Under the pieces are notes generated by a model. That model was not told where the DNA came from, did no database searches, and worked only from the letters and a program-made list of their open reading frames with translations. 64,000 bases of DNA from positions 558,001-622,000 of the forward strand of contig CP120456.1 of the NCBI GenBank assembly GCA_034226945.1, written 5' to 3'. A program made the translations under genes and the position numbers. Source of the stretch: Picochlorum sp. SENEW3. Taxonomy: Eukaryota. Shown one piece after another: positions 49,625 through 59,768 of the stretch. Each line of letters opens with the position of its first letter. Within the stretch, counting starts at the first letter, position 1.

Positions 49625-50263
49625 TCAGAATTGTGCAAAGCACCGAGTGCATTCTCCAGCACAGTCTCCTTGGCAATCAGTTGTGGCCCCGAGGACCTTT
49701 GGTTTCCTCACAATAGATTTGGTTAATGCCTTTCCTTTGAGGAAGTAATTCTTCTTTAATTTGCCTACATTCGCTTCCATCAGAGTCTGGTCAACCTTGA
49801 GAACTTCTGGAAACTTTTCCAGAACCTTCACTTTGTCTGCATTGGAATCCATGCCAAGATTGATGGTGAGATACTCTAGGCAGGCGTGTACTGCTTGCGC
49901 GGATGGTGGTTCTCGAACAAGCTCTTGCCTCCAATACGCCTGACTACCCCATCCAAAACCTCGCACCATTGCCTTCTCAGCACTATCTTTTGTCATACCG
50001 ATATCCACCAAAATATCGATGCACTCGCTCCATGCTGGGACGTCTTGTGTGGACAGTCCTTCCGGGCCACATGATGACGTACATGAGCAGGATGGTCGAT
50101 GCGTTATTCGCACCGATGGCGCATTCATTCGTCTTAATCTCCAATCTAATGTTCCTGAGACGGCGTTGTGATGCTTGATTGAAACAGGAAGCCCTGGTGT
50201 GTTCCTAGTGGTGGTCCAAGGCTGAGGAGAACACCTTACCCCATGTGCATTAAGCGCTCCCAT
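49625..50263 (-). CDS. Probable plastid protein with mTERF-like repeats and a C-terminal Cys4 motif
   Basis: Transit-like N-terminus, KFPEVL and RKPKVLG repeats, C-terminus DCQGDCAGECTRCFAQF. Confidence 0.65.
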   Translation of the reverse strand: MGALNAHGVRCSPQPWTTTRNTPGLPVSIKHHNAVSGTLDWRLRRMNAPSVRITHRPSCSCTSSCGPEGLSTQDVPAWSECIDILVDIGMTKDSAEKAMVRGFGWGSQAYWRQELVREPPSAQAVHACLEYLTINLGMDSNADKVKVLEKFPEVLKVDQTLMEANVGKLKKNYFLKGKALTKSIVRKPKVLGATTDCQGDCAGECTRCFAQF

Positions 50264-50399
50264 TGTGAGCTACTCGTGTTTATTCGAGGGCCGGTAATAG
50301 GCTTCCAAACTTTTTCACGATGTCGCTCCCTCGGCTCCCCTGGCGCGTATTAAATTCCCTCGCACCCCTAAATCAATGTAATATTGTATTAAGGTGTCG

Positions 50400-53300
50400 C
50401 TCGAGTCGCTGGAACGTGAAAATGGTCAGAATCGCGCGAAAACGTCGCGAAAAACACGAAATCTGCGGGGGAGTAGTGTAACCTCAGCCCTGCTCGACCA
50501 CAAAATCGGAAAGAAAATGAAAAATTAAAACTTTTAGTAGCGTGGAATATCCCTGTAAGTGTTCCGTTTTGCTGCACGAGTGCGATGAAGACAATGGAGG
50601 AGCAATAACTTTGTCGATACGGCCAACAGAGACCTTTAAAAGATTTAATAAACGATATTATTCGGAGATCTGGGTCGTATAAGGAAGGGAATTGTGAGAT
50701 ACTGGCGAGATGTGGTGACTTGGACGAAAATCGAATTGTATTACCTCGAACCACGGGCCCCGTTGACACTTGAAATGGGTCCTAGAAAGTACAAGGAATA
50801 TTTTGGGAGAAAATATGGACAAAATGGACCAATGACGAGGAAGATATTGCGACTAATGTTCGCGATAGTCGACCTTGACCTCAAGGGTTGACTGGACACT
50901 ACCTAGGTGGCCTGGTGACAGGGTAGTCAACGTGCTATGATGTCCTGAGTGACCATGGTTTTATCCATAAAATGACCATGTTGACTGCTATCAGTATGTA
51001 ATACTTAGAATATTCACGAAAAAAAAAGATTGAACCTTCAAGAACCTTTAACAACATTGGTCATGTGTAACCCTAAACATGTAGAAGATCAGGACTTTAC
51101 AGTAAACTACAGGACCGAACGACGCATACGAAGAGGTGCAGAATCGATGGAGACAGTAACAGAAGACCAATGTTTTACTGTTCGGTCTGAAAGACCCAGA
51201 AGGCGTGCCACCAGGAAGACACACCTGCAAAATGGAGACTTCTTGCTCTTCGATGATGACGCTGGTGTGGATGACCCTTTGACTCAATCTTCCAAGAGGA
51301 CGGGGCGATGGAAATGTCAGACGATAGTCATGGAAAGGTTAATATCCGTTCTTCTTCTTCTCGGCCGAGGGAAAAACCACGCCAACGCCCAAGAGATGCA
51401 AAGGATGCAGACTATTGTCTTGAAAACGAGGAACTGGACAATTTGTCGGACGACCAAACTAAAGGTTTGAAAGTCATGTCACACCAAAAGGATGGAGCGT
51501 GTCGCAAGTACGTGCCTTTCCCATGTGTTGTTCTTGACAGTGATGTAACAGGAAACATTGAATGACCAGTTCACACCTTACTGATTGTAGAGGCAATACT
51601 GTTCTCCTGACAACGGCTCGACAAAAGCGACGAAAGGCCTATGAAAAGGATAAGGACTTTAAAGTTCGAAGTTATATTCGCAAGCAATGTGAGCAACGAA
51701 ACGCAACTGTCAACGAGCAACCTGAACCTCAACTTTGCAAGGAACATGGTGATACCTTGGCCAAGCACAAGGGTGCCTGTACGGAATCAAATGGCTTGAT
51801 AAACGACACTGCGGAAAAGATGGTCGATCCCGACGACGAAACTGAAAGTATGAACGTCAGGTCACAGGAGAAAGATGAAGCATATGTGAATGAAATTAAG
51901 GGTGGCTGGACATGTGTTGAGAACATCCCATTCTCCACCTTCACTCGCGTCTCTGAGATTGATCTGTACGAGAAAATGGCCCAGAAATGCGAGGAATGGA
52001 ATAAACTATGCCAACAAACGTTCACGGAGATGATTCGTTGTTGCATCTGTGGGGTGTGTGAGCTTGGGAGTGTCAGGAAATCCACCTTTGAATACATTGT
52101 AGCTCACCCTGAATTAATGGTTGGTGGTGATGTGCCCAGCCGCGCCCACAACCCTGGATTGCCTGGAAAGTACGTAACTACAACGGATGGCGTTACGGAA
52201 ATGTGGAAGGTGTGTAAGGACTGCAAGAAAGACCCCCAAGAAGGGTTTGACTTTTGTGTGGACTTTGGTCTTCAGTCTGGGGAGTACCTGGAATGGATCA
52301 TGGCAAGTGACATAGAGGAGCGACAGGCATTGCAGTGCGTAGACGTAGGGTATCAGATCAGCAAAGCGAGGCCTACGGATACTGGCTACACTGGTCAGGC
52401 CCATGGGTTTGCCATGTTCATGGCCCCCATCATCCGTGCTGTTGGCTCAGTTTATCAAAAAACTGACGACTCCGAGCCGATTCAATCATGCGATACCTTG
52501 CTTTATACGCCTTGGATGAAGAATAGGCTGAAGAAGTCCAGCCAAAAACTGTTGATTTACAACCTCTCTACGAACAGGATCTACCACAACCTTCGGTGCA
52601 TGGCAGAAATCCCTGATTTCAACGGAAATTCCTTCTTGTCCCATGACATCGTGCAAGAAATTCTGGAATTGGCCAGGAACAAAGACCCGCTGATAACCAG
52701 GGTGGATAATCAACACGCAGAAGCAGCGTTAGAGGACAGTGAAGCCTTGGTGGGCGAAGGACAAAAGGATAAAAATGAAGAGGGTGTCACACAGACAGAC
52801 ATGTGCAGGACCAAAGACAAGGACCCTGTTGAGGATTTGGAAGAGGAAGCAGTGGACAACACTGCTGATGACGCACCACGGCAGAACATGATTGTGTTGC
52901 CTGTGGATCCGCCATACAAGTCTGTGTTGACAAATGATACCCTGCTGTCTGTTGGGCACGTGTATCCTCGTGAAGGAACTAGCAAGGAAATTTTCCTGAG
53001 TAGACCTCAAGGCGAATCCAGTTTGGAAATAGACGGTCAAGTGGTAACTCTAGAGTCCACCCTGTTTCCATATCTGTTCCCAGAGGGAAAGGGCTGCTAC
53101 ACCCCTGCTGAGGGTAGCAGAAAAACTTCACTGTCCGACTTTCAGAATTACATGAAACGCAGGATGTCAACCTTATTCTCGCCTTTCACTATGATTCAAG
53201 AATATATCTTGATGATGTACCAGATTGTCAGAGTAATGTTGTGTACAACCTCTGGTCAAAAGCATACCCTAAAATCAGCGTACGACAAGCGACTCAAGAA

Positions 53301-56300
53301 GTATCCAAGAGAATCAGAGCACGATCGGATCAAAAATTTGGTGACGTACGTGATGCCCAAGAGCGTCCCATACAGTCCTTCATGGTGGCGTCACAAACTG
53401 AACGACCTAATTGCCATCACCAGGGACATGGGGCTCCCTCATTACTTCCTCACCCTCACAGTTGACAACACGAGCGAGCTGCGTTGGGACGAATATAACA
53501 GTATGGAATCTATTTTAGGTCAAATGAATAGGAAATATCGTAAAAAGGGCAAGAAACACCTGAACCTTGGGATAGCTAATGCTCAGGCTGAAGCGGCTGC
53601 TCTATTCCACACCAGGGTTTCAAACTTCATGGACATGTTCATTCTGGAGGGGCATAAGACGCTTGGGGAGATCACGCACCACGTGGTTCGGTACGAAATG
53701 CAGGGCAGGCAAGCTCTTCACGCCCATATTTTGCTGTGGTCGAATCCAGAAGATGTCAAGGTGCATGAACAGGAAATCACCAGAGACATTTTAATGGAAC
53801 TAAACGCCAGCGGCGACTGGGTGTCGCCCGACCCCCACAAAACCCCATCAAGTACAGACTACATTGTTTATTGCAAAGAAAGAACCGCCACACATGTAGG
53901 CCTTCCGTTTGTGGCAAGAAACGTCCATGCAAATTAGGATATCCATACGACATTTACAATGGTCCAACCATGTATGACGAGCATCGCAAGGAGTACTTGT
54001 ACAAATGTCCAAACTACCACAGTAGAAATGTTGTTTCGTATCATCCAGAAGTACGTGTTATTATGTGGCGTTTCTTGAGCATTGCGTCCGTATGCATATA
54101 TGAACAACACTGGTCATTGATTGCTGCAGTTGATGCTGGCTTGGAATGCCCACATGTGCCTGAAGCGCGTGACACATGCTGATTTCTCGTACTATTTGCT
54201 AAAGTATACATTGAAATCAGAGCCCACAGGTCAGTTGTCGTTGAACAAAGAGGTTGAATCGCAAATGAACATGACCAACCTCGATGCTGGAGTTGTCAAG
54301 GTTGTCAATGCAATGACTCAATCACAGCCTGTGAGTGAAGTCGAAGCAGCTCTTCAGATGATGCGCGTGCCCATCGTGTACATGCACATCAAGTATGACA
54401 ATAACGTTGTGGACAAGTCTCCAGTCCAATTCCTAATGTCAACACCGCCAGATTTGCGCAAGGCCACTGTGGGCATGGCACGCGGTACAATTACGTCACA
54501 TATGGATTATTACGAGAATAGGCCGGACGACACCTTGATCAACCGCATGTCGTACATGAAGTATCACCGCAACTGCTATTTTCCAGGGAAGCTCCTCACT
54601 TCTGACAGAAAACAAAGCAAGTATGTGGGCACTGACATGAAAGGACGCCATGTGTACTACCGTGATCACAGAAAAATCGTGCGCATAGCCAACTATTGGC
54701 CAAGCAACGATCCGGAAAATTTCTTTTACACGGTTATTTTATCCAAGGTTGCTTTTCGACTGGAAGGAAGTCTCAGGAACAACGACAGCGAGACATACTA
54801 TGAACACTGCCAGCTGGCTGGACTTGTGGAACCTCTGGATCGTGTCAAGCAGGGTCATTGCTCCAAACTTGAGGCAGTGCTACAGGAATATTACACGGAC
54901 CACTTTACCAAAAAGTACTGTATTGAGTCGACCATCGACGAAATTCTGGAGTATTACGATACCAGGAAGCACAAGACGGAGGTAACAGCAAAGGTCAACG
55001 CTTCCCTAGTCGATCAGTTCAATTCCAAACACTTGGTCATCGAAGGCCTCCCCGAGTTGAATTCAGATCAGGCAAAGGTATTTTCAAAACTAGCACGGGA
55101 AAACTTTGTGGGCCTACACGTCATCAAAGGGCCAGCTGGCACGGGCAAGTCTGTCCTCATTCGACACATTGTCCGCCACTGTACAAATGTATTACATCGA
55201 CACGTCCTGGTGACTGCCACGTCTGGCACGGCTGCGTCTCGGCTTCCCGGAGGAAAAACGCTTCATTCAGCGCTGAGCATGGGACAGGGCAACAAAACAA
55301 GCATCCTGAGCACGGTCTTCAGGCCAGGCACTTCACAGTATGCTGAATGCAAAAAATCTTCTGTCCTCATCATTGATGAGGCATTCATGCTGTCGGCAGA
55401 CTTTCTGCTGACGGCAATCAGCAAGTATGCGTCCACAGACGACATTTCATATGTGGAGGATATTTTTTCTCTAAAGGGCGTCATCTTGGTCGGGGATGAT
55501 AATCAGCTGCCTCCAGTGTGCCAGCACAAACCCAAGGACCACTCCAAGGGCCAGGGAGGCCTGAAACCACCGTGCATGCGCTGTTTAACAAAAAATTGCA
55601 TCCTCTTTAAGCATGCAATGCAGTACGAATTAACTGTTCCTGAGAGACAGAAAGGCGACCCCGAGTTTCGGGCCTTCATCCAAAGCCTTCACCAGCAAAT
55701 TCCGACACAAGACGAGATCCAGCGCGTGCTGGGCGAGCATGTCCTCCTTCCGAGTAGTGACAAAAATTCTCCGAATTACAAAAGGGAATGTGAGGACCTG
55801 TGGCTAGAGTTTCTGTCCCAGGAAAATGCTGTTTCATTGCATGCCCACAGAGAAACCACTGCCATGTTCAACAACATGTGGCTGGACAGGTATTTAGGAC
55901 AGGAAAAAAAGGTCAAAATTTCTCCTATGACAAACTACGATGATATATATGCCATCGATCCTGTGGCTGCAAAGGAAATGCATTCATGGTACTACGACAA
56001 GAAATTCCATGAGCTTGCTGTTATTGCTGTGGGGTGCCCGGTCGTTTCGCTCACCAACAAGCATTACAAGGGCACGTATCTGACCAACGGCAGTATTGGC
56101 GTTGTCCAAGCAATCTATTATGATTCAAAGTTTACAACAGCCCAAAATGATGAACCAGTTGTCAAAAGGATCGACGTTTTGATGGATGGGTGTGAGACAG
56201 CGGTTCCAGTATACCGTACAACAAACACCACCGTCCACAATGGGCATACGTGCAAGAGAAAGAATTTCCCGCTGTTGTTGGGTAAATCAATGACCATTCA

Positions 56301-57780
56301 TAAATGTCAGGGCAGTTCGATGGCGGGCCCAGTCCTCTTGGACTTTCGAGACCTTTTCGAGGTTGGTATGGGGTATGTCCTACTGACGCGAAAGACCTCC
56401 AGGGACCAACTTGCATTAACTTGCTGCCCCACCCCAGAGCAACTTCAGGTGTTATCAACGTACTCTCCCCCATCTGGGTGCGAGCTCCGTAACGAGGCCA
56501 AAAAGGAGCCTAAAACCAAAGGAAACAAACATAGCCATGTTCACAGCCAAGCACAGAAACTTCTTGCTATAGACAGGTCTGCAAATACCTTTATGGACAA
56601 ACCCCACACCCGTGTTGAGACCGGACAACAATGGTTGAATCCTATTCCAACCACCGTGACGTCCATTATAAATGCCAACGACTGGATATCCAACTTTGCC
56701 AACCCAGTGTACGAAAGCACCAGGGATTTTCTTCAGCATATCCCCACTGCATCCATGAAAAAGCTGGTCGATCGAAAGCAAGCGCTGGAGATGAACACGA
56801 TGGAATGGCTTTATAACGAAGAAATTGATTTCTATGCAAAGTATATCAAATGGAGGTTGGAAAAAAACAGCAGCTGGTGTCACATTCTTGAGACAGAAAG
56901 TTACCTGCTCATTTTCCGCAACAACGATCCCTTGGAGCACATACTCTCGGCGTGGAAAAATATAGATTCATCAGCAAAGTTTATATGCGCATTCACTGCT
57001 CACGACTCGCATTATTCCTTGCTAATCCTGGGGAATTTTTCATCTGATTCTGGCTCCCCATATGCCTTTTACTTGGACTCTCTACCTGCGTCCATGGCTT
57101 CGGTGGAACACCGGGTGAGCCCATCCATTCTTGGACAATTCATCGACGCCTGCCCATGGAGGACGAGTCCTTTGGATGCCCCAGTACAGATTGAATGTTT
57201 GTCAGTGCCCCAACAGAAGCTGTCAGATGGTAACTGTGGACCCTACGTACTCTTATTTTTCCAGAGATTTCTTCACATGCTGTCAAAACTCGACAGCCCA
57301 CCGTCACAGGAAATCCTCAGAGAAGAAATTCTGTCGTGGAGAACGTTGCACCATTCCCCAGCACCATACTCAGAGTACGCCGTGGCTTTGCGTCATAATT
57401 ACGCAAAACTTTTAGACCAGTGTGCTTTATTACAAGGTTCAGAATACTAAGCTCTACTTCAGAACCCGTTCTTCTGCCTCAGGCAAAAGGCCAAAGTTGC
57501 AAGGCCAAAAAAACTTGCCAGGCAATTGCCTTGTTGCAACACTGCACTACCACTAGTAGGCTACTTAGGCTACATCAATACAGATCTGTGTTCAATTTCT
57601 ATTACATTTGTTACCACAGATTTCTGTAATTTACAATGTAAATGCCCCTCCCACCGTCGATACAAGTTCTCCCTGTCCTTTTTATTACAGACCATCCTGT
57701 CTAAATTTGGATTTACACCTTTGCTTACAATCACTAATCGCCGACTCTCACTTTCGGCCCTCCACTACTTGTTTTTTTTA
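50400..57780 (+). mobile_element. Helitron-like rolling-circle transposon (Helitron2/Helentron-type Rep); ends approximate
   Basis: Encodes an HUH Rep and a Pif1 helicase. Occupies about 7.5 kb between two divergent host genes where spacers are otherwise a few hundred bp. Confidence 0.85.
51063..57450 (+). CDS. RepHel transposase (Zn finger-HUH Rep-Pif1 helicase) fused to a Ulp1/C48 peptidase; introns 51508-51590 and 54051-54129; apparent frameshifts near 51305 and 53868
   Basis: Rep: PHYFLTLT, RYEMQGRQALHAHILLW, YYLLKYTLK. Helicase: GPAGTGKS, IIDE, GDDNQLPPV, RQ, TIHKCQG. Protease: WLYNEEIDFY, HYSLL, YLDSL, QQKLSDGNCGPYV. Confidence 0.88.
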
Positions 57781-57962
57781 TTAAATACAACTAATGTTCC
57801 AGAAAGAATTATCAACGATGATTATGGATGCCTCTGACAGATAATGCAAATGCTCATTTATTTACGGAATTTTGATGGGTCAGGTGGAGTCGGCATTATT
57901 CATTCGATTTTCCCATTATTTCAGTTTGAAACATAGATTATTGAATATCTGGTATTACGTGT

Positions 57963-59768
57963 ATGACAATGAGTGCGGAAGAGGCTCCAGTGAAAGAAAT
58001 GGCTGACATGGAGGTCCAAGAGCAGCAGGTACGTTTGTATGCGTAACGCATTTTTGGCCTCATCTAATGATTTGATTTATTGTAGGATGTTGATCCAGAG
58101 GTTGCAGCGAAGAAAAAGGCTGAGCGTGAGGCAAAGAAGGCAGCAAAGGCTGCAGAGAAGGCCAAGAAAGAAGCAGCCAAGGCTGCGGCAAAGGTGGGTG
58201 CATATGGATCGCGTTGTATTCCATTCTGACGAGATTTAATGTGATGAATATATCGATTGTAGGCTGCAGAGGCTGCGAGAAAGCTCGCTTTGACTACCCA
58301 GCCAGACCCTGAGGATCCGCTGAGGGATCAGTATGGGGATCCACCCATGGTTCAGAGTCGCGAGAGGACGGGCCGAGTCTGGACATCTGTGAGGGACCTT
58401 GATACTACTTTGTCGGATGCACAAGTCCTTGTACGAGCAAGAGTTCACGCAGTCAGAGGAAAGGGCAAGTCTGCATTTGTTGTGTTGCGTCAGCAAACAG
58501 CAACTGTGCAGGCGGTTTTGTTCGTTGATGATGAGACTGTCAGCAAACAAATGGTCAAATATGCTTGCAATATTCCCAAGGAATCTATTGTAGATGTGGG
58601 TGGTATTATCAAGGTGACGGACACGCCAGTAGAGTCCTGCTCTCAGTCTGCAGTGGAACTTCATGTGACTGAAATTCGATGCATCAGTCGTTCAGCAGCA
58701 TTGCCATTTGAGCTTGTGGACGCTTGTAGAAGCGAACAAGAAGTAAAGGAAGCAAATGAGCGTGGAGAAATATTGCCAGTTGTGTCTCAGGATACTAGAT
58801 TAGACAACAGAGTGATTGATTTGAGAACACCAGCAAATCAGGCAATTTTCAGGATCCAGAGTGCTGTGTGCCAGTTGTTCAGAGAGGCGTTGCTTTCTAA
58901 GGACTTTGTGGAGATTCATACTCCAAAAATGCTTTCAGGGGCATCTGAAGGAGGCGCTGCAGTGTTTCATGTGGATTACATGGGACGCCCTGCATGCCTT
59001 GCACAGAGTCCCCAGTTTTACAAGCAAATGGCAATCTGTGGTGATCTGACCCGGGTGTTTGAAATTGGATCTGTATTCAGAGCTGAAGATTCAAATACCC
59101 ATCGACATTTGACAGAGTTCATTGGATTGGATATGGAAATGGCTATTTTTGAAAGTTATCATGAGGTTTTGGATGTGTTGGACCATCTCTTTGTATACAT
59201 GTTCAGGGGACTTCAAAGTAGATTCTCCAAGGAATTATCGGTCATTTCGCAGCAGTACCCATTCGAGCCATTGCAATATCTCCCTGAAACGTTGCGAATC
59301 ACATTTGCCGAAGGTATTCAGATGCTCCAAGATGCAGGACATGCAGTTGATCCTCTTGAAGATCTCAACACTGAGATGGAGCGTACTCTGGGTCGTTTAG
59401 TGAAGGAAAAGTATAATACAGACTTTTACATTTTGCATAAATTCCCATTGGGTATTCGTCCATTCTATACTATGCCTGATCCAGAGGATGATAGATATTC
59501 TGCCTCATTTGATGTGTTCATTAGGGGCGAGGAAATCATCTCCGGAGCACAGAGAATTCACGATGCCGATCTGCTCAGGGAACGGGCAGAAAAGTACGGT
59601 ATTCCTATCGATCAGGTACAGTCTTATCTTGATGCATTCAAATGTGGAGCATATCCTCACGGAGGCGCTGGTGTTGGCCTCGAACGAGTTGTCATGCTCT
59701 TCTGTGGCCTGAATAATATTAGGAAAACGTCCATGTTCCCAAGAGATCCAAGACGTCTTGCCCCATAA
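57963..59768 (+). CDS. DARS: Cytosolic aspartyl-tRNA synthetase; introns 58029-58085 and 58194-58262
   Basis: OB-fold anticodon domain; TRLDNRVIDLR, SEGGAAVF, LAQSPQ, FRAEDSNTHRH, GLER and FPRDPRRLAP. Confidence 0.97.

Follow-up and report, generated by a model that had tools for sequence, protein, structure and literature searches.

The window analysed here, a stretch of 64,000 nucleotides from Picochlorum sp. SENEW3 (C4:558001-622000), carries on its forward strand an intact, recently mobile rolling-circle transposon of the Helitron2 (HLE2) type, and its transposase is almost certainly a single protein in which a zinc finger, a Rep domain with two catalytic tyrosines (Y2), a Pif1 helicase, a linker and a C48 (Ulp1/SENP-like) protease follow one another. 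The element is an HLE2 with an in-frame C48 domain that probably derives from a Mutator-like transposon. A first-pass annotation had assigned it to the Helitron2 group and had pointed out the Cys finger, the HUH Rep with its YxxKY motif, the Pif1 helicase and the His, Asp, Gln and Cys of the C48 domain; these motifs and their coordinates hold, and the assignment is borne out by the fused Rep and helicase (RepHel), the inverted repeats and the insertion between T and T. The features are as follows.

50284..57771, + strand: whole HLE2 element, its ends set by the C10 copy and the non-autonomous copies
50284..50293, + strand: 5′ terminus with terminal inverted repeat, 9/10 bases complementary to 57755-57764
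51063..51507, + strand: exon 1, start Met and charged low-complexity N-terminus; one base missing after 51277
51508..51590, + strand: intron 1, 83 nt, GT..AG
51591..54050, + strand: exon 2, zinc finger, DUF6570-like region, Rep motifs 1 and 2; one base missing after 53838
52039..52224, + strand: C2-C2 zinc-finger-like Cys pairs, CxxC at 52039-52059 and 52213-52224
53689..53727, + strand: Rep motif 2 with HUH (RYEMQGRQALHAH)
54051..54129, + strand: inferred intron 2, 79 nt, GT..AG, phase 0
54190..54207, + strand: Rep motif 3 with two catalytic tyrosines (YYLLKY), by motif position and Helraiser alignment
55054..56463, + strand: Pif1-like superfamily 1B (SF1B) helicase
56464..56679, + strand: variable linker, 72 residues, no Gly-Gly
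56680..57447, + strand: C48/Ulp1-SENP-like protease domain; Trp 56806, His 57010, Asp 57076, Gln 57214, Cys 57235
57740..57758, + strand: 3′ hairpin, 5-bp stem, overlapping the subterminal repeat
57755..57771, + strand: 3′ terminus with subterminal inverted repeat; TT comes next

Structure and termini of the element

The element measures 7,488 bp as assembled, or 7,490 bp with two read-supported bases, and sits between T-rich flanks. A DNA search of the genome (13.85 Mb in 14 contigs) returned 31 matches, including a second full copy (C10:671085-678584) that is 99.9% identical over 7.5 kb and lies in unrelated flanks; a segmental duplication as the source of this copy is ruled out, since the identity ends at the element ends. 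Between the two copies there is a one-base difference in the 5′ T-tract, along with seven single-base indels at six places, and none of the four indels private to the C10 copy was seen in the read contigs of four runs. Three complete non-autonomous copies (1,228-1,830 bp) have in common with the element about 630 bp of the 5′ end (81-86% identity) and 23 bp of the 3′ end.

The 5′ 13-mer of the element occurs nine times in the genome, against none for the reversed control, and is always preceded by T (9/9); the 3′ 12-mer gives eight matches against four for its control, a count that is weak by itself, and all eight extend to the same terminus, followed by TT. The terminal inverted repeat, perfect over 8 bp and 9/10 when extended, lies at 50284 and 57755 and is retained in the non-autonomous copies; its 8-bp unit near the 5′ end recurs inverted 9 bases from the 3′ end, where it overlaps the hairpin. 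This hairpin is unusually stable (z -4.1; 1 of 200 shuffles as stable), and the non-autonomous copies keep just about 3 bp of its stem. No significant hairpin was found at the 5′ end, where 187 of 200 shuffles fold as well, and the absence of one hairpin is described for some Helitron2 elements (PMC5148889). When the ends of the copies are compared, insertion is seen to occur between T and T without target duplication, and this, together with the terminal repeats and the non-autonomous copies, gives the features of HLE2 as described in PMC11417382 and PMC5148889. Canonical HLE1 elements have TC...CTRR termini, insertion between A and T and no inverted repeats, whereas this element starts with TC, ends with CTTG between T and T, and has inverted repeats.

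Reading frame of the transposase gene

The open reading frame (ORF) of the transposase has its start ATG at 51063 and its stop at 57450. The single spliced path of about 2,000 amino acids (aa) proposed in the first-pass annotation stands in outline, but not for the sequence as assembled, where the frame, with the two introns removed, stops at codon 136. Contigs from four runs (one sample of one study, possibly the source of the assembly) have an extra base after 53838 in 4/4 runs and after 51277 in 3/4, the fourth having a depth of 3.5 there, and with these two bases added and introns 51508-51590 and 54051-54129 removed the frame is open for 2,075 aa. In run X1, a single 6,092-nt contig covers 51689-57779 with no further difference; its depth of 119, against 60 and 57 in the flanks, is consistent with two identical copies, though depth gives no copy number. 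The low cover of 51767-52328 in runs X3 and X4 was not used as evidence. The long ORF is identical to the NCBI protein P0001 (Picochlorum sp. SENEW3), the 1,940-aa model of this locus, which skips the error at 53838 by a false intron; an intron at that place was rejected because the reads show the missing base and the 53 skipped codons hold conserved Rep sequence. Single-base errors in the assembly distort the two gene models publicly available for the element, and both NCBI models (P0001 and P0002) are patched with false introns.

In an X3 contig the sequence is joined across intron 1, and P0001 has the same splice. Intron 2 has the same donor heptamer, and its removal restores sequence that is uninterrupted in Helraiser and in family C, one of two sister families of this genome, the other of which, family B, is interrupted at the same place; it is joined in none of the contigs of the four runs. 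In X3 and X4, the stretch 52569-57778 towards the 3′ end of the element is covered in one piece, by contigs that carry no strand information. The 5′ coding region has 74-83% DNA identity to family B. Helicase and C48 share one stop-free frame of 1,109 codons; the protease therefore lies in the same exon as the helicase.

Zinc finger, Rep and helicase

Cys pairs similar to the finger of the element are found in the relatives P0026 and P0027. For the DUF6570-like region, 30 of 30 Atlas matches fall in DUF6570 clusters (top 0.95-0.96), with a recognition of 1865, below the 2300 mark, and a Pfam scan gave no match. The Rep domain matches Helitron_like_N (Pfam) with 72 bits; motif 1 lies at 53446, and motif 2 aligns with the HUH motif of Helraiser (PDB 7lcc, E 2.4e-15 by profile). 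The helicase matches PIF1 (Pfam) with 72.9 bits, as well as Pif1 and Helraiser entries of the PDB, and the Pfam matches, the 7lcc alignment and the 2,075-aa frame together reveal a Y2 HUH Rep fused to an SF1B helicase. The motif 2 signatures of HLE2 are F/Y-x-R before ExQ and a Ser between Gly and Pro (PMC4067079); in the element the Arg is present but follows V-V, and RQAL fits neither RGSP nor RGLP, RQA being common to families B and C and P0026. A psi-K-x-E motif directly after the catalytic Tyr was dropped as evidence, as it also occurs in relatives devoid of C48. The Pfam scan gave no Exo_endo_phos match and hence no AP endonuclease, in agreement with the first-pass annotation, and the C-terminus is held by C48, so the element is not a Helentron in the strict sense.

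The C48 domain

In an alignment with nine other C48 domains, the His-Asp-Cys triad and the oxyanion Gln appear in order, and the domain has the Ulp1/SENP-like fold of clan CE; the in-frame C48 with intact catalytic residues is thereby corroborated by alignment and positions. A single-sequence fold was poor (pLDDT 47), with weak CE-clan hints only, and was replaced by a model from the alignment; a single-sequence phmmer search of the domain against the PDB gave no match. In C48 enzymes, a tunnel of two Trp accommodates the Gly-Gly tail. The first tunnel Trp is kept in the element, and the second is Tyr, or Phe in the ENA protein P0004 and in P0011; the catalytic His 57010 is thus followed by Tyr, not Trp, and the oxyanion spacing is Gln-x6-Cys.

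All the catalytic residues and the open frame persist across 59% divergence of the C48 domain, while the linker decayed, and because of this retention the domain is quite likely to be catalytically active. In a profile of the Helitron and Mutator-type domains, SENP1, SENP7 and Ulp1 reach 58-62 bits against 47-49 for SENP8, with the host SENP8-like enzyme in the profile, and the modelled domain has about an even chance of acting mainly on SUMO.

Relatives and spread of the fusion

The fusion was found in the two copies of the window element, in P0003 (Picochlorum sp. BPE23), about 95% identical in the C48 domain, and in P0004, whose identity to the element is 71% in the helicase, 28% in the linker and 41% in C48. 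The sister families comprise three long copies (B, 46% identity) and two copies (C, 31%). Five of the seven close members (B, C and P0005-P0007) end 10-20 residues past the last helicase motif, whereas the element protein continues for 337. In a helicase tree of 12 sequences, the two C48 bearers form one 100/100 clade nested among the lineage, which argues for one gain. A distinct algal lineage defined by its protease, as first proposed, is therefore retained as a lineage marked by RQA, in which the bearers are a nested clade and most close members have no C48. The absence of the protease from the sister families shows, at the level of sequence, that it is optional and not required.

The wider searches were insensitive, and the narrow range of the fusion is thus weak evidence. 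A metagenome scan returned 15 loci, none with C48 (best E 0.12), most of them cut before the helicase end or plain Pif1 genes, so that it says little; viral contigs gave two weak helicase loci and no C48 relative, phage records gave no match, and a search of longer proteins (up to 2,000 aa; among the 7,999 candidates listed) missed even P0004. Intron-rich relatives of the same Rep lineage occur in metagenome contigs (L066, L068, L069 and L071-L074) and as P0026 and P0027, including an MMETSP transcript, with the motif 2 variants QGQQS and QNRG among the metagenome and MMETSP sequences; they make up a broader Helitron clade that is probably algal.

Family B (L036:1545-7500, L037, L038) has termini different from those of the element, with a 10-bp inverted repeat and a 3′ end CTAG before T, an ending like that of canonical Helitrons on an HLE2-type element; its 5′ coding likeness combined with different termini suggests end swapping or recombination between families. 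In both copies of family C (L040:1486-1995, L039:8764-9273), a conserved ORF of 170 codons on the opposite strand abuts the RepHel stop, with no Pfam match. In the ENA protein P0029 (1,972 aa), also a RepHel, a Josephin deubiquitinase domain (39.2 bits, above the cut-off) is fused in frame at the C-terminus; Josephin is not in the HELIANO supplement.

Origin of the protease

The search of the genome with PF02902 gave eight matches, corresponding to seven genes, three of which read as host ULP1-, ULP2- and SENP8-like. The other four are convergent to Mutator-like transposases, recognized by Pfam SWIM/MULE for two and by tblastn (E 1e-109 and 6e-28) for the others, and 4/4 lie inside terminal inverted repeats of 66-161 bp. 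Compared with the Helitron C48, the four Mutator-borne domains score 18.8-23.8 bits and the three host ones at most 2.6. Among 1.84 billion representatives, seven proteins matched the Helitron C48, of which P0013 and P0014, being repeat proteins, were set aside as spurious, and P0016 overlaps it over 29 residues only; the best full domains after P0004 belong to P0011 and P0015, whose likeness to Mutator-borne proteins extends beyond the protease (E 3e-15 and 2e-23). Two C48 trees, one with 19 domains and one with 17, set the Helitron and Mutator-type domains apart from the cellular enzymes (98/96 and 98), and capture from a host ULP gene is rejected for each of the three paralogues (p about 0.002). 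The GC content at third codon positions (GC3) is 0.52 in the C48 domain, against 0.55-0.57 in the element and 0.42-0.46 in the Mutator genes. Just the catalytic domain was taken, the N-terminal part of the donor being left out. A single nested gain in Helitrons, set against a diverse Mutator-borne family, indicates the direction from Mutator to Helitron, and the sequences make it likely that C48 was gained once, behind the natural end of the helicase, from a family of Ulp1-like accessory genes in the Mutator-like elements of the same algal group.

Each of the four Mutator-like elements, L090 (C2), L091 (C3), L055 (C4) and L054 (C4), measures about 5.5 kb, and the N-terminal part of their Ulp1-like proteins may hold SH3/KOW-like modules (weak SH3_12 match). 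Another transposon-borne C48, in the non-LTR (long terminal repeat) retrotransposon protein P0023 (ENA, 1,687 aa), lies before the reverse transcriptase and clusters with cellular ULPs rather than with the C48 of the Helitron.

Possible role of the tethered protease

In the mechanism proposed here, RepHel would nick the element end, bind the single strand covalently via its catalytic Tyr and unwind it, and the resulting adduct would resemble the DNA-protein crosslinks that cells tag with SUMO, and then with ubiquitin, for destruction. The structure paper on Helraiser is said to describe a 5′ end that is covalently bound and protected. Rep HUH enzymes become linked to DNA through covalent tyrosyl bonds (10.64898/2026.01.09.698661), and adducts of topoisomerases receive SUMO first and ubiquitin next before they are degraded (PMC7511601; 10.1101/2020.06.08.140079). 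The C48 domain would work as an isopeptidase on a ubiquitin-like modifier, of which SUMO is the likeliest, and, because it is tethered to RepHel, it would act where RepHel acts and strip the marks from the transposase or adjacent proteins, so that the intermediate lasts until integration; it would be a booster and not a requirement. The host SUMO gene is interrupted by an intron ahead of its last strand. That the domain is an active isopeptidase working with the transposase at its site of action is, as read from the sequence, a matter of equal chances; protection of the covalent intermediate as its specific role, drawn by analogy, is possible but doubtful, and the complete scenario, in which a SUMO protease, acquired by a Helitron from a Mutator-like transposon, works in cis and conceals the covalent transposase-DNA intermediate from crosslink repair directed by SUMO, is unlikely to hold in every part. 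If true, the in-frame C48, the Josephin domain of P0029 and the herpes-type and OTU domains would be repeated independent answers to one pressure, namely host ubiquitin-like surveillance of rolling-circle intermediates.

Several observations weigh against this proposal or its components. The profile matches by which the first-pass annotation could be checked are clear for Rep and helicase, but Peptidase_C48 (PF02902) reaches 20.5 bits on the isolated domain and 15.7 in the long ORF, with a cut-off of 20.7, and the C48 domain of the element is not among the matches listed when the genome was searched with PF02902. The predicted fold places SUMO and NEDD8 enzymes within 1 Z unit, and the replacement of Trp after the catalytic His by Tyr (Phe in P0004), together with a Gln-Cys loop one residue longer than in the other aligned C48 domains, may reflect a shift in specificity. 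With regard to the origin, nesting of the Helitron C48 inside the Mutator-type group could not be demonstrated (AU p 0.109), the C48 tree has long branches and 17-19 sequences only, and there is no DNA similarity between the Helitron C48 and the Mutator copies, which, with the Helitron-like GC3, implies an old capture. The sister families have three and two long copies without C48, so that no advantage is visible, and the literature search found no report of SUMO acting on a Helitron intermediate.

Alternatively, C48 might act on NEDD8/RUB or ubiquitin, damping cullin-ligase or proteasomal turnover of the transposase; this is rather unlikely in view of the higher profile scores of SENP1, SENP7 and Ulp1 over SENP8 and of the rejected grouping with the host SENP8-like enzyme. 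An anti-silencing role, raised in the first-pass annotation and similar to that of KAONASHI/VANC in Mutator-like elements of Arabidopsis, in which an active deSUMOylase undoes SUMO-dependent repressive chromatin on the element copies, with end-binding by RepHel as targeting, would fit a Mutator-borne Ulp1 gene as the likely donor, and Ulp1-bearing VANC is tied to hypomethylation of its own elements, the role of Ulp1 being stated as unknown (PMC13317346); nevertheless, a silenced element would not produce the fused protein, and only the catalytic domain was captured, without the N-terminal part of the donor, so that this role is judged unlikely. The captured domain may also be a passenger tolerated at the C-terminus, with no role in transposition, since the five close relatives without C48 still multiply, C48 drifts faster than the helicase, and P0012 and P0016 look like decayed forms; however, the retention of catalytic residues and frame beside a decayed linker, and a GC3 that matches the element and implies long residence, render it quite improbable.

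The remaining alternatives concern the product itself. The contigs of X3 and X4 splice the intron of the neighbouring gene yet read through intron 2 unspliced, which weighs against the fused protein as the main product and would suit retention of intron 2 in most transcripts, or an internal promoter, giving a helicase-C48 protein or a non-coding RNA without the HUH half of Rep. On the other hand, minority forms are lost from contigs, which also carry no strand, the runs are not registered as RNA, X3 shows intron 1 joined, the signals of intron 2 are clean and conserved in family B, and the recent transposition of the element needs the whole Rep, which leaves such a product with little likelihood. 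Self-processing, in which the protease cuts RepHel into subunits, was also raised in the first-pass annotation and was once proposed for the OTU domains of Helentrons (PMC4067079); viral CE-clan maturation proteases have the same fold, at lower scores, but the linker contains no Gly-Gly, and this idea is very improbable. Compared with these alternatives, the tethered isopeptidase was kept as the working proposal.

Genomic surroundings

The element lies between two divergent genes (window 49625-50283 and 57772-57969) and upstream of both: the first ATG of an mTERF-like ORF on the minus strand (weak Pfam match) is 20 bp away, and a gene read as aspartyl-tRNA synthetase about 200 bp. It may have split a promoter common to both. 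Upstream of the family C Helitron on C4 there is an LTR-retrotransposon integrase/RNase H region (L040:8117-9998), and mixed transposon clusters occur at 1.04-1.14 Mb of C4 and 0.57-0.63 Mb of C6.

Comparison with known systems

The element resembles HLE2/Helitron2, such as FoHeli of Fusarium, in the Y2 Rep-Pif1 fusion, the short asymmetric inverted repeats, the T/T insertion, the lack of endonuclease, the probable DUF6570 region and the non-autonomous derivatives (PMC5148889, PMC11417382), and differs in RQA for RG(S/L)P in motif 2, a 3′ repeat that lies only 7-9 bases before the terminus, the lack of a clear 5′ hairpin and the in-frame C-terminal C48. HELIANO counts Peptidase_C48, OTU, UCH and Herpes_teg_N among 20 domains stably carried by HLEs; according to the text of the paper, four domains share the RepHel ORF, and the rest, C48 included, are in separate ORFs, in contrast to the C48 described here, which lies in the exon of the helicase (PMC11417382). 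In its supplement, Herpes_teg_N and OTU are within HLE2 RepHel proteins and C48 is named without taxa, and, in the accessible text, its one Trebouxiophyceae genome has no HLE2 (PMC11417382). The first-pass statement that Ulp1 domains are best known from Mutator and CACTA elements thus needs extending to Helitrons, as separate ORFs (PMC11417382), and to Ginger1, where Ulp1 (or OTU) is fused in frame at the transposase C-terminus (PMC2836005). The authors of the Ginger1 study suggested that the domain takes an active part in repair signalling while the element transposes, although Ginger1 is a DDE cut-and-paste enzyme of animals with no covalent single-strand intermediate (PMC2836005). Transposon-borne C48 is also found in Mutator-like elements (KAONASHI/VANDAL; rice, melon and grape; PMC13317346, PMC12903978) and in oomycete Cryptons, another transposon class (PMC3212892).

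The nearest relatives of the Helitron domain are carried by the Mutator-like elements of this genome, where, unlike in the Helitron, C48 has a convergent gene of its own, 540-590 codons long and with an additional N-terminal region. With SENP7/Ulp2, Ulp1/SENP1 and SENP8/NEDP1 the domain has in common the fold, the His-Asp-Cys triad, the oxyanion Gln and the first tunnel Trp, but it is 15-20% identical to solved C48 enzymes and differs in the Tyr after His and in Gln-x6-Cys. Helitrons have been noted in Chlamydomonas, in a source whose accessible text does not mention Ulp1 (PMC10288648); the SENEW3 genome paper puts DNA transposons at 0.35%, and its main text contains none of the words rolling, helicase and Mutator (PMC11092101). 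A literature search, which did not extend to Repbase, Dfam or most subscription journals, turned up neither an in-frame RepHel-C48 nor any account of Helitrons in Picochlorum. In summary, parts and theme have precedent, and the value added lies in the probable cross-class origin, a plausible case of domain transfer from one class of transposon to another, and in a ready-made test system. Ulp1-like domains have long been seen in Mutator, Ginger, Crypton and Helitron elements, their role being stated as unknown (PMC13317346), and this question is now testable in an intact, recently copied element of a compact algal genome, with the protease covalently tied to the transposase and with sister families without C48 as natural controls.

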